From an uncultured bacterium (GTDB taxonomy: Bacteria > Chlamydiota > Chlamydiia > Chlamydiales > Rhabdochlamydiaceae): 64,000 nt of DNA. Numbering within the stretch: the first letter of the stretch is position 1; every line of letters starts with the position of its first letter. Location: the NCBI GenBank assembly GCA_964461105.1, contig CAYWSY010000001.1, positions 8,714 through 72,713 of the forward strand, read 5' to 3'. Position numbers and translations under genes: made by a program. The notes below the pieces were generated by a model. That model did not search any database. It had not been told where the DNA came from and saw only the letters and a list, made by a program, of their open reading frames with translations. Shown here piece by piece: positions 48,976 to 53,254 of the stretch.

Positions 48976-49060
48976 GGAAGAGTGGCAGAGTGGCCTATCG
49001 CGGCTGTCTTGAAAACAGCAGTCGGGCAACCGACCGTGGGTTCGAATCCTACCTCTTCCG
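48976..49060 (+). tRNA. tRNA-Ser (anticodon UGA)
   Basis: Acceptor GGAAGAG/CTCTTCC. Anticodon stem-loop GCTGT-CTTGAAA-ACAGC. Long variable arm. T arm GTGGGTTCGAATCCTAC. Confidence 0.85.
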
Positions 49061-49065
49061 AATCG

Positions 49066-49108
49066 CCGAAGACATTTTCAGAAATGATGATGCCTTCGGT
49101 TTTTTTTT
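49066..49108 (+). terminator. Intrinsic terminator after tRNA-Ser
   Basis: CCGAAG...CTTCGG stem followed by a T9 run. Confidence 0.6.
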
Positions 49109-49188
49109 GCCTAAAAAATTCTGCTTCCGCGGAAAGTTATACCTAGTTATTGCTGGTTTTGAGTATAACTATGAATAAGTTGGTATAA

Positions 49189-49358
49189 CTAGTAGTCTGT
49201 AAACAAAGCTCTTGGTGTTAGTTTTCGCGTGAAAGCGCCCGCGGTTGAATCGGGATCGAGGGGGGCTGTGTCTATGAACACAGCTCCTCTCGATCCCGAT
49301 CCAACCCCGGGACTTTGACGCAAAAATAGCTGCAAGAACTTTATTTACAGACTACTAG
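49189..49358. repeat. PE-C copy 1: 170-bp imperfect palindromic element
   Basis: CTAGTAGTCTGTAAACAAAG ... CTTTATTTACAGACTACTAG. Central stem GCTGTGT-CTATGA-ACACAGC. Ends 8 nt before the ATPase ATG. Confidence 0.92.
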
Positions 49359-49366
49359 GGAAAAAC

Positions 49367-50581: not shown

Positions 50582-50674
50582 TTCGATTAAACAAGCTTCA
50601 AAATCAGAATAGATGTAAGTTGGAATCAGTTTTTTCAGTTCTTATCAGGTATATTTAGCCAACAAAAAAAATAA

Positions 50675-50878
50675 ATGGATCCAAAAAAATTAGGAAAAAA
50701 AATCAAGATTGCCCGTATCGAGCTTGATATGTCTCAAGGTGATTTAGCTCAGGCGATCGGAGCATTGCAGAAGAGCATTTCGAGATATGAGACTGGCGCC
50801 TCATTTCCCTCGATTGAAACCTTAGACAAAATCGCAAAGGTTTTGAACAAGCCTTTCGTTCATTTTCTAGAACAATAA
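50675..50878 (+). CDS. XRE-family helix-turn-helix transcriptional regulator (67 aa)
   Basis: IKIARIELDMSQGDLAQAIGALQKSISRYETG is a typical HTH_3 pattern. Confidence 0.75.
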   Translation: MDPKKLGKKIKIARIELDMSQGDLAQAIGALQKSISRYETGASFPSIETLDKIAKVLNKPFVHFLEQ

Positions 50879-51876
50879 CGCACTTCATTGACAAGCGGCT
50901 TACCGCTTGCAAAGGCGTGCACATTCTCTAAAGTGATCTGCACAAGTCGGCGTACAGCCTGCTCTGTAAAAAAAGCCAGGTGGGCCGTGACAATGACATT
51001 GGGAAGCATGAGGAGCTCTTCAAGAAGGGGATCCTGTAATGGCTGATTGCGAAAATCCTCGAAGAAATAAGCCTTTTCATTCTCGTACACATCAAGTCCA
51101 GCGCAACTCAATGCTCCCCCTTTGAGTGCGCAAATCAAATCAGAGGTGTTAACAAGCCCACCTCTGCCCGTATTGATTAACATGGCATGAGGTTGGATCA
51201 TGGCAAGAGTTTTTGCGTTGATGAGGTGATGAGTCTCTTCATTCAGCGGACAGTGAAGTGAGACGATATCGCTTTGCTGCAACAGAGTCTTTAGATCCAC
51301 ATAGCTAGCCCCTGCTTGTTGTGCAAAGGCATCATCAGGGACGATATCATTTAACAGCACGCGCATTCCAAAGCCGCGAAGAATGGTGGCAAGCGCTTTG
51401 CCAATCTTCCCAGAGCCGATAATCCCGGCCGTTTTACCGTGTAAATCGAACCCCATGAGTCCGTTTAAGGTAAAGTCATGCGATCGGGTGCGCTGGTAGG
51501 CCAAGTGGATCTTGCGGTTTAAAGAGAGGATGAGAGCGGCTGTATGTTCAGCTACTGCATAAGGAGAATAGTCAGGAACGCGAACAACGGGGATTTTGCC
51601 TGCAGCGCTTTTAAGATCAACATGGTCGTAACCGACAGATCTCAAAGCAATCAGCTTCACTTTTAAGTCATAGAGAGCATCGATCACGGGCTTTGAGAGG
51701 TCATCATGCACAAATGCGCAAATGACATCATATCCATTTGCATGTTTGACGGTATCGATCGTGAGCTTCTCAGAGCGATAGTCGATGGAGAATTTAAAAA
51801 AAGCATTGGCTTGCTCAAAGAAAGGCTGTTCAAAAGGCTGATGTCCATAGATGAGAAGGCGCATCACTCTTTCCAA
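50860..51876 (-). CDS. ldhA: D-lactate dehydrogenase / D-isomer-specific 2-hydroxyacid dehydrogenase
   Basis: GIIGSGKIGKA (GxGxxG), a catalytic-domain NTGRGGLV motif, and the His region VTAHLAF. Confidence 0.85.
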   Translation of the reverse strand: MERVMRLLIYGHQPFEQPFFEQANAFFKFSIDYRSEKLTIDTVKHANGYDVICAFVHDDLSKPVIDALYDLKVKLIALRSVGYDHVDLKSAAGKIPVVRVPDYSPYAVAEHTAALILSLNRKIHLAYQRTRSHDFTLNGLMGFDLHGKTAGIIGSGKIGKALATILRGFGMRVLLNDIVPDDAFAQQAGASYVDLKTLLQQSDIVSLHCPLNEETHHLINAKTLAMIQPHAMLINTGRGGLVNTSDLICALKGGALSCAGLDVYENEKAYFFEDFRNQPLQDPLLEELLMLPNVIVTAHLAFFTEQAVRRLVQITLENVHAFASGKPLVNEVRYCSRK

Positions 51877-53048
51877 TAGGGATGATCGAGATCTTTACGA
51901 TAACAGCCCGCCTCTTCATCCCAAATGTTGGATGGGGAGAGGTTCTCACCATATTTACTCTGAAGGAAGACAACAACGTTGTTTGGCGCCCAAACGGTAA
52001 CTCCATCAAAGTTGGCTCTTTTTAAGGGGAAGACATCTTCATAGTTAAGAGGATTGATGCAGCGGAGTTCATCTTTTTTCCAGCTGTATGGAAAGGGGCT
52101 GTCGATGTAAGAGTAGTAAAATCCAACTTGTTTGGTCTCTTCGTTGATGTCGTAGTGGTAGATGTCGATGAAATTCTTGGTCTCTTTGACGTAGAGTTTA
52201 AGGAAGGACTTAGGTTTGCTATAACTTGACCAGTCCTGGATCTGATATTTTTCCGGGTCTAAGGTGGAAAGGAGGCGCTTGGCATTGTCGTGATCAGGCA
52301 GCATGATGGAAAGATCGATGTCCCAATCCCAAGGGATAATTCCACCATAACGATAAGCACCAAGACAGGTGCCACAGTCGATCCACCAAGTAATCTGATG
52401 TCGATCGAAGAGTTCAGCAATTTCTCTTAGCGCTTCAATTTCGAGAGTTTGACGATGCGTGAGGGTCGATGGGCGTTTATAGCCCTGACAGGGGATGACA
52501 TCGTCACAGTGAAGCGCTAAAATTCCTTTAGCCAAATAGTCTTCTTGATGCGGCTCGACTTGGGGGAAGCTGAGCGCTGCTTTCATGAGCTTATGCCGTT
52601 TTTTGACATCTGGAGAGAGGTAGGCAAGTCCTTTAAACGAAGCGCCGAGAACTTCTGTAACAGGGAGGACGGCAAGGGCAAGCGTCGTTTTAAGCCAATG
52701 GAGTTTGCTGTAGTTAAAAGACTGGGAAACCTCGCAGGTCCCTGTTTCCGGATTGAGTCGTACATTTTTTCCGGCAAACAAATAGCGCGAAGGGACTAAG
52801 AAAAAATCACCGACAGCTTCTAAAGGAAGAGGGTCTTTATTTTTTGTGTTTAGAAAGAAGCTCTCGCGCACATTGTGGTATGTCGTAACAATCGGCATTC
52901 CAAGAGGCTGAAGAACATCTCTAAATAAACTGGTTTCTTTGACTTTTGTCTGTTTTTCTTCTCCATGTAAGGAGGTTAAGAGCAGTGGAGCTAGAGCACA
53001 TGCGCAAAGGAGCCGTGTAGCGGTGCGTAGAAGTTGGGATGTGAGCAT
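51864..53048 (-). CDS. LicD-family phosphotransferase (cholinephosphotransferase-like) with an N-terminal signal/anchor
   Basis: WWIDCGTCLGAYRYGGIIPWDWDIDLSI is the LicD core with a DxD motif. Hydrophobic N-terminus. Confidence 0.72.
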   Translation of the reverse strand: MLTSQLLRTATRLLCACALAPLLLTSLHGEEKQTKVKETSLFRDVLQPLGMPIVTTYHNVRESFFLNTKNKDPLPLEAVGDFFLVPSRYLFAGKNVRLNPETGTCEVSQSFNYSKLHWLKTTLALAVLPVTEVLGASFKGLAYLSPDVKKRHKLMKAALSFPQVEPHQEDYLAKGILALHCDDVIPCQGYKRPSTLTHRQTLEIEALREIAELFDRHQITWWIDCGTCLGAYRYGGIIPWDWDIDLSIMLPDHDNAKRLLSTLDPEKYQIQDWSSYSKPKSFLKLYVKETKNFIDIYHYDINEETKQVGFYYSYIDSPFPYSWKKDELRCINPLNYEDVFPLKRANFDGVTVWAPNNVVVFLQSKYGENLSPSNIWDEEAGCYRKDLDHPYWKE

Positions 53049-53084
53049 AAACTTTCCTGAAGGTGATTTCAGAATTGTATATAT

Positions 53085-53254
53085 CTAGTAGTCTGTAAAC
53101 AAAGTTCTTGCAGCTATTTTTGCGTCAAAGTCCCGGGGTTGGATCGGTATCGAGAGGAGCTGTGTTCATAGACACAGCCCCCCTCGATACCGATTCAACC
53201 GCGGGCACTTTCACGCGAAAACTAGCACCAAGAACTTTGTTTACAGACTACTAG
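53085..53254. repeat. PE-C copy 2: 170-bp element, reverse complement of copy 1
   Basis: Near-identical to the reverse complement of 49189-49358. Central stem GCTGTGT-TCATAG-ACACAGC. Confidence 0.92.

Follow-up and report, generated by a model that had tools for sequence, protein, structure and literature searches.

Correia elements (CREE) in Neisseria and ERIC elements in enterobacteria are non-coding sequences of 100-200 nt with terminal inverted repeats (TIRs) that fold into a full-length hairpin, are flanked by plain TA, lie in intergenic DNA or in leaders by start codons with a presence varying among related genomes, and reach tens to hundreds of copies with known promoter, integration host factor (IHF), and RNase sites (PMC10969869). 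Among insertion sequences (ISs), IS630 targets CTAG and duplicates TA (PMC2577343), and IS5 duplicates YTAR, mostly CTAG, and hops into promoter-proximal intergenic sites (PMC5493358). Pairs of MITEs (miniature transposable elements with inverted repeats) can also bound composite units, including the TIME-COMPs (PMC13367494) and a 439-bp MITE pair around the blaPER-1 integron (PMC3934969). A 2024 review of prokaryotic MITEs leaves the phylum Chlamydiota unmentioned (PMC10969869). The present analysis concerns a palindromic element, termed PE-C, in a 64,000-nt stretch of contig CAYWSY010000001.1 (assembly GCA_964461105.1, positions 8,714 to 72,713) from an uncultured member of the Rhabdochlamydiaceae, hereafter the window. 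Two inverted copies, PE-C1 and PE-C2, stand downstream of a tRNA-Ser gene and enclose genes for an AAA+ ATPase, an XRE regulator, a D-lactate dehydrogenase (ldhA), and a LicD-family transferase (Table 1). Comparison with relatives indicated that a conserved neighborhood was probably altered by three separate events and is not a mobile 3.7-kb unit.

Each PE-C copy is an imperfect palindrome composed of TIRs of 37-40 nt beginning CTAGTAGTCTGTAAA and a 34-nt inner hairpin. The terminal repeats are 84-90% complementary, and no open reading frame (ORF) of at least 50 aa fits in the 170 nt. The RNA fold had an energy of -108.7 kcal/mol (z = -15 versus shuffled sequences). Rfam microRNA-like matches on the hairpins were rejected, as they were sub-threshold (28 bits versus cut-offs of 74-80) and an artefact of any long hairpin. 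PE-C1 and PE-C2 were identical at 164/170 positions (96.5%) when compared in inverted orientation versus only ~82% in direct orientation, such that the inverted assignment of this palindromic pair is real. The 20-nt PE-C terminus occurred five times in the window with none expected. PE-C1 ends 8 nt before the ATPase ATG (49367) and PE-C2 lies 36 nt from the LicD ATG (53048, minus strand), with the arm containing TTGACG turned toward the gene in both cases (49315-49320 and the reverse complement of 53123-53128). The layout described in an earlier note on this DNA, comprising the tRNA-Ser, its terminator, the inverted pair, the four genes, and the gaps to the two start codons, was confirmed by ARAGORN, Pfam, repeat analysis, and inspection of the sequence.

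Compared with the described systems, PE-C shares with the Correia and ERIC elements its length, lack of coding capacity, TIRs, full-length hairpin, position in intergenic DNA and leaders by start codons, and variable presence among related genomes. It differs by having no sequence similarity to them, by CTAG rather than TA flanks, by its two copies here plus one elsewhere, and by its host, an environmental member of the Chlamydiota. The likeness to IS5 and IS630 lies in CTAG flanks within AT-rich, promoter-proximal DNA and the difference in that no transposase gene with PE-C ends was found; PE-C fits both precedents and does not permit a choice between them. The PE-C termini (CTAGTAGTCTGTAAAC...) are presumably unlike the ends of IS5.

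The independent insertion of PE-C1 was revealed by the leader of the ATPase gene (compared sequences are designated by L numbers). The DNA at the left flank of PE-C1 was 82-88% identical to that directly 5' of the ATPase homologues in L026-L029 and also matched the leader in L036. In L026, L028, and L036 this ~60-nt leader ran uninterrupted to the ATG, reading ...GTTATAyCAAGTTATTG...GAGTATAAGT..GTTGATATAAyCAAGkCTrAAAyATG. In the window, the leader was instead followed by PE-C1 and then by GGAAAAAC-ATG, where GGAAAAAC aligned with the (G/T)CT(A/G)AAA(C/T) immediately 5' of the ATG in the same three sequences. Because the leader is continuous in these empty sites, the DNA on the two sides of PE-C1 represents the halves of one pre-existing leader. 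At the position of the CTAG, the empty leaders read CAAG. The aligned filled and empty sites showed PE-C1 to be a separate, simple insertion.

A corresponding empty site was identified for PE-C2. The LicD/h189 intergenic region of L035 was homologous to the window on either side of PE-C2 and uninterrupted, measuring 138 nt versus 304 nt in the window, a difference of 166 nt that is close to one element. The bases shared by L035 and the window included TTTAAAGTCA...TTTGAAAAA on the h189 side and GTCAGGA beside the LicD ATG. This alignment likewise showed PE-C2 to be a separate, simple insertion. As the flanks of both PE-C copies are contiguous elsewhere, arrival of a composite in one piece cannot have yielded them.

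Gene order in the pheS and LicD neighborhoods of relatives (pheS identity 73-92%) supported the same reading, and blastn found PE-C in none of these loci. Close pheS homologues that carry a name were annotated solely as Chlamydiota, Rhabdochlamydiaceae, or mis-binned 'Verrucomicrobia' metagenome-assembled genomes. The pheS gene was directly followed by the same tRNA-Ser(tga) in L014, L017, L019, L030, L031, L034, and L035. In the closest relative, L034 (pheS 92% identical over the C-terminal 108 aa), the tRNA-Ser was followed after 98 nt by a convergent LicD gene (82%) and h340, without h189. In L035 (pheS 84%), it was followed by XRE (73%), ~8 kb of other genes, LicD (78%), h189 (75%), and h340 (62%), and in L014-16 (pheS 84%) by XRE (70%) and an esterase gene. 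L017 (pheS 76%) carried ldhA (51%) after the tRNA-Ser, then LicD (61%) with the same 1-nt overlap, h189, and h340; L031 (pheS 73%) carried toxin-antitoxin-like genes, XRE (68%), and LicD (62%); L030 (pheS 73%) two F-box genes and LicD (56%); and L019/L020 (pheS 76%) ankyrin genes after the tRNA-Ser. Thus, XRE orthologues with 68-73% amino acid identity followed the tRNA-Ser in L014-16 and L035 and, in L031, immediately preceded LicD, and LicD orthologues (56-82%) lay near pheS-tRNA-Ser in L017, L030, L031, and L034 and 8 kb off in L035. By tblastn, h189 (49-75%) and h340 (47-65%) kept their order after LicD in L017 and L035, with h340 only in L034. Farther out, the spermidine synthase, RDD, TK, uridine kinase, and TGT genes of the window matched downstream genes of L017, L031, and L035.

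This gene order in relatives without PE-C identifies pheS-tRNA-Ser and LicD-h189-h340 as conserved anchors, with XRE and ldhA as recurrent residents between them. The slot between tRNA-Ser and LicD held different content in every relative, and the downstream flank of tRNA-Ser is, across the aligned loci, a recurrent gene-exchange slot in this clade. The GC content at third codon positions (GC3) was 0.48 for ldhA and 0.47 for LicD against a backbone of 0.44 +/- 0.055 and was 0.30 for the ATPase (z = -2.5). Together, these comparisons of order and composition showed XRE, ldhA, and LicD to be backbone genes and the ATPase to be foreign.

The ATPase was lacking at the pheS-tRNA-Ser locus of all relatives compared, and homologues with 89-91% amino acid identity were identified in three other assemblies in unrelated contexts, where the neighbors encoded leucine-rich repeat proteins (L026), a methyltransferase (L028), or a peptidase and VKOR (L036). 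Plasmids carried further homologues, namely pPNK of Protochlamydia naegleriophila (74%) and plasmids from Legionella pneumophila (66%), and sequences at least 75% identical fell into more than 120 sequence clusters. Most or all neighbors had a higher GC3 than the ATPase in the window and in L026, L028, and L033, and the values were similar in L032 (a Protochlamydia plasmid). The mobile unit consisted of the ~60-nt leader, with TATAAG repeats and a 15-nt inverted repeat, plus the ORF, and similarity ended at the stop codon. A strongly conserved orphan AAA+ ATPase travels together with this leader among the chromosomes of chlamydiae and the plasmids of amoeba-associated bacteria. The nearest structures to its AlphaFold model (mean confidence, pLDDT, 73.5) were the archaeal AAA+ ATPases PAB2304 and SSO1545, together with Orc1/Cdc6 and RuvB, and the predicted fold resembles an AAA+ core plus winged helix, a generic similarity in a model of moderate confidence. 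A sequence search of the PDB with the ATPase gave no match, and PADLOC matched it to no defence system above noise. PADLOC analysis of XRE matched only generic HTH models. Exact-sequence look-ups of the window LicD and ATPase returned no record, and the context was taken from homologues instead.

Scanning of one genome per species for further PE-C copies identified a third full-length copy, 85% identical, in a Parachlamydiales metagenome-assembled genome (JAGVMG01, isolate SW_7; L004, 1443-1612), as well as isolated PE-C termini in L003, L005, and L008; the remaining matches were chance 19-mers. No transposase gene adjoined the solo termini in L003 and L008, and the metagenome, viral, and plasmid collections contained no further full-length PE-C. 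The gene order around the L004 copy was that of window positions 7780-13394 (proteins 65-87% identical), where the window has no element at the corresponding position. In L004, the upstream porin-like gene now ends at a TAG stop codon provided by the left CTAG of the copy, and the right CTAG plus GAG forms a Shine-Dalgarno sequence 7 nt before the next ATG. This element must have been placed in a former 11-nt intergenic gap, and the CTAG-derived stop codon and Shine-Dalgarno sequence are as expected from insertion into a single CTAG. CTAG stood on both sides of all three PE-C copies, in AT-rich DNA with the left flanks TATAA, TATAT, and TATTT. PE-C is short and non-coding with terminal inverted repeats, dispersed copies (albeit few), and filled and empty sites, which are the features by which MITEs are recognized, and in these comparisons it behaves like a low-copy, CTAG-flanked, MITE-like element. 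PE-C represents an undescribed family of CTAG-flanked palindromic elements in environmental Chlamydiota. PE-C, the exchange slot, and the travelling ATPase leave the current understanding of mobile DNA unchanged.

CTAG was strongly under-represented in the whole window, which has 85 sites where base composition predicts 241 and a Markov model 102. A mostly intergenic location of CTAG as the cause of landing near genes was considered and rejected, as 12/85 sites (14%) were intergenic versus 12% of the sequence.

Two other palindromic families were observed in the window. PE-A occurred at 5444-5615 and 16895-17064 (copies 75% alike) and three times within 13 kb of the related chlamydial contig L026 (7318-7449, 9081-9208, and 10603-10735), and is thus a family of higher copy number in this clade. 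At its right end, the second PE-A copy of the window (CCAGTAGTCTGTATAAAAAG, 17036-17055) resembled the PE-C terminus, and PE-A and PE-C may share a transposase or be nested. PE-B formed an inverted pair (27348-27492 and 33875-34046) with 96 nt 100% identical and 6.4 kb of minus-strand genes between the copies; solo PE-B termini were found at 29887-29917 and 50562-50581, and a degenerate one at 24990.

The ancestral order at the locus would have been pheS, tRNA-Ser, the variable slot, XRE, ldhA, LicD, h189, and h340. A horizontally mobile ATPase gene with its own ~60-nt promoter/leader would have entered the slot just after tRNA-Ser. PE-C would then have inserted at a CTAG-type site in that leader, between the TATAA repeats and the ribosome-binding site, and the second copy at a further CTAG, within the divergent promoter region shared by LicD and h189. 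PE-C was most likely moved in trans by a CTAG-targeting DDE transposase of the IS5 or IS630 type. Several points weigh against this interpretation. A target duplication cannot be proved, as the palindromic CTAG is inseparable from the terminal repeat. Neither the window nor the collections of genomes, metagenomes, viruses, and plasmids yielded an autonomous IS with PE-C ends. The copy number is very low, with two copies here and one full copy plus some solo termini elsewhere. If a rare element transposed at random, two near-identical copies would not be expected within 3.9 kb of each other, which suggests local hopping or another link between them. Finally, the intergenic alignments are short and come from relatives 8-27% divergent in pheS, such that the exact junctions are approximate.

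A consensus sigma-70 promoter scan found no site in either PE-C copy (49189-49358 or 53085-53254), although in a chlamydial host such a scan is no proof that a promoter is lacking. The best promoter-like readings were TTGACG-N19-TTTATT in PE-C1 and TTGACG-N19-TTTGTT in PE-C2. From the position of the conserved leader, we infer that the ATPase promoter lies upstream of PE-C1, and PE-C1 would then most simply be transcribed as a hairpin in the 5' untranslated region (5'-UTR), the base of which would include part of the ribosome-binding region. With PE-C2 36 nt from the LicD ATG, the LicD promoter must lie in or beyond PE-C2. The equivalent uninterrupted DNA of L035 holds a good TTGAAA-N16-TATATT motif that, on the alignment, PE-C2 may have split. 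Because a likely promoter precedes and the start codon follows both PE-C copies, transcripts probably include them as long 5'-UTR hairpins, which could modulate how the ATPase and the LicD-ldhA operon are expressed, the operon being predicted because the ldhA ATG shares 1 nt with the LicD stop codon. Proximity of PE-C to start codons argues only weakly for a function: ~88% of the window is coding and CTAG is not enriched in intergenic DNA, and tolerated insertions would thus usually fall near a gene end.

The geometry of the locus underlies the proposal of the earlier note, in which the PE-C pair flanks the mixed cargo of an island or composite mobile unit. Under such a composite model, the copies would have been the ends of a MITE-bounded unit that brought the ATPase, XRE, ldhA, and LicD together beside tRNA-Ser. 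Two 96.5% identical inverted copies do bracket 3.7 kb beside a tRNA gene, and the TIME-COMPs and the blaPER-1 pair likewise have two copies of one miniature element around a few kb (PMC13367494; PMC3934969). In those composites foreign DNA moved as a unit, whereas here the bracketed genes except the ATPase are residents: LicD, ldhA, and XRE occur at the locus in relatives without PE-C, the conserved order crosses the PE-C2 site, and compositional foreignness is limited to the ATPase. Furthermore, the sequences outside and inside each copy adjoin one another elsewhere and do not separate into donor and target DNA. The absence of a transposase or integrase, already stated by the earlier note, held among the 19 ORFs scanned with Pfam at 41.4-63.6 kb, which included every ORF of at least 150 aa from the tRNA to 63.6 kb plus XRE and left out the thrS-like, infC, rpmI, and rplT ORFs at 45.4-47.8 kb; likewise, no transposase recognizing PE-C ends was found in PE-C, in these ORFs, or beside the matches in public collections. 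The note had expected, were it wrong, the same four genes in the same order beside tRNA-Ser in relatives lacking PE-C and with backbone composition, and comparison of the pheS-tRNA-Ser junction revealed most of this; in GC3 the ATPase was atypical, and ldhA and LicD were at backbone composition. The mobile-element-like nature of PE-C, its location in the 5' regions of two genes, and the variable post-tRNA slot with a foreign ATPase were upheld, and the joining of these into one unit, which is now highly improbable, was not. This removes a false lead, in that an island-like geometry beside a tRNA gene resolves into a resident neighborhood with two miniature insertions and one acquired gene. A narrower version, in which the ATPase and perhaps PE-C1 are left from an element integrated site-specifically at tRNA-Ser, agrees with the foreign ATPase found on plasmids, with similarity to relatives stopping at approximately the tRNA 3' end, and with post-tRNA content that differs by relative (nothing, ldhA, XRE, toxin-antitoxin-like, F-box, or ankyrin genes). 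As in tRNA-linked islands, a variable slot with a compositionally foreign gene directly follows the tRNA gene; unlike them, no integrase was found among the scanned ORFs, the foreign content is one 1.3-kb gene, and conserved backbone genes come before PE-C2, the right boundary that was proposed. A direct repeat of the tRNA-Ser 3' end, which the earlier note suggested looking for, was not detected, as no word of at least 11 nt from the 3' half recurred elsewhere in the window on either strand, leaving no att repeat there for either proposal. In addition, the conserved ATPase unit is leader plus ORF only and lies in four non-tRNA contexts elsewhere, with the trend in the six contexts seen being no adjoining tRNA genes or integrases, so that an integration remnant is improbable.

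The palindrome itself bears on the remaining explanations. In the three-copy comparison, 98.6% of 216 pair cells were paired and both-side changes occurred in 6/72 pairs, one of which separates the window copies (GGGATC/GATCCC versus GGTATC/GATACC); these changes could reflect selection on the hairpin or arm-to-arm correction of a DNA palindrome, which three sequences cannot separate. Such maintained pairing over the full length would also suit mobilization of PE-C as single-stranded DNA by a RAYT (HUH/Y1) transposase, as in REPINs, instead of a DDE-type MITE. REPINs are ~100 nt long. Each PE-C terminus contains the REP tag GTAG (CTA-GTAG-TCTG), and REP-type GTAG repeats have been reported in the PVC superphylum (PMC3733652). 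In REPs, however, the GTAG is unpaired and the repeat 20-40 nt, whereas the GTAG of the 170-nt PE-C is within the stem, the CTAG at either end is consistent with a DDE-type target duplication, and no Y1 transposase or RAYT gene was seen among the scanned ORFs, making this route a slim prospect. The paired changes would also agree with an exaptation of PE-C, the copies being retained as outward promoters or 5'-UTR structures, or the inverted pair inverting the 3.7-kb segment such that recombination swaps the upstream regions of the two inward-pointing genes. Correia elements supply promoters, undergo RNase III processing, and can invert (PMC10969869), a start codon is 7-36 nt away from the L004 copy and from both copies in the window, and the latter two turn one and the same arm toward the gene. 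The outward promoter at TTGACG suggested by the earlier note was not borne out, since the consensus scan was empty in PE-C and in L004 it is the other arm, reading TTCACG, that is turned toward the gene. Same-arm orientation in two copies is expected by chance at 50%, and with ~12% non-coding DNA almost any tolerated insertion is near a gene start. Folding of both strands of all three copies revealed no strand preference in energy and gave no sense-specific RNA argument. For the inversion, ldhA-LicD is oriented as in L017 with no sign of inversion, and none of the scanned ORFs encodes a recombinase. Exaptation is accordingly unlikely, although less so than the other alternatives. A related and improbable proposal is that PE-C forms with PE-A and PE-B a structure-maintained hairpin set, the inverted pair now bounding an invertible or MITE-mobilizable segment; if true, inversion would exchange the 5' control regions of the ATPase and the LicD-ldhA operon, giving a recombinase-free expression switch in a phylum without described MITEs. 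Independent insertion of two miniature elements and one ATPase gene into a resident neighborhood remained the likely explanation.

Table 1. Features at the tRNA-Ser locus, in window coordinates.
Feature	Position	Strand	Basis
tRNA-Ser(UGA); with pheS, the conserved left anchor	48975..49061	+	ARAGORN; Rfam tRNA, 49.6 bits
Bulged hairpin CCGAAG...CTTCGG plus T9, probable intrinsic terminator of tRNA-Ser	~49065..49108	+	Read from sequence
Upstream part of the conserved ATPase leader, left flank of PE-C1	49130..49188	+	TATAA(G) repeats and inverted repeat
PE-C1, 170-nt CTAG-flanked palindromic MITE-like element in the ATPase leader	49189..49358	+	Repeat and fold analysis
Last 8 nt of the ATPase leader, GGAAAAAC, separating PE-C1 from the ATG	49359..49366	+	Leader alignment
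Orphan AAA+ ATPase (AAA_16/AAA_22 plus C-terminal winged helix) in the variable slot	49367..50557	+	Pfam
Solo PE-B terminus TATACCCCTTCCGGTTCAAA, 4 nt past the ATPase stop codon	50562..50581	+	Exact 20-nt match to the terminus at 33875
XRE/HTH_3 regulator, backbone gene	50675..50878	+	Pfam
D-2-hydroxyacid (D-lactate) dehydrogenase, ldhA-like, backbone gene	50860..51864	-	Pfam, NCBIfam
LicD-family transferase, conserved right anchor of the variable slot	51864..53048	-	Pfam
PE-C2, second copy, inverted relative to PE-C1, in the LicD/h189 divergent intergenic region	53085..53254	-	Repeat analysis
h189 and h340, function unassigned, extending the conserved order past PE-C2	53353..54836	+	tblastn

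The hairpin assigned as the tRNA-Ser terminator was not listed by a simple terminator scan, which accepts loops of up to 8 nt, a limit that this hairpin exceeds. Among the neighboring genes, h189 (53353-53922) encodes 189 aa with a Trp/Asn/His-rich low-complexity repeat region (NWNDHWNGYWHNQWNNQHWRNHW...) and no family match, and it is kept beside LicD in L017 and L035. A tandem duplication with a period of 1307 nt and 88-95% identity was identified at 54692-57304, holding two 304-aa paralogues (54823-55737 and 56130-57044, minus strand) without a Pfam match. Downstream, a 403-aa protein (57219-58430) contained a bacterial EndoU nuclease domain (E = 8.8e-07), and its gene, with a GC3 of 0.32 (z = -2.1), was a further compositionally atypical gene near the locus.

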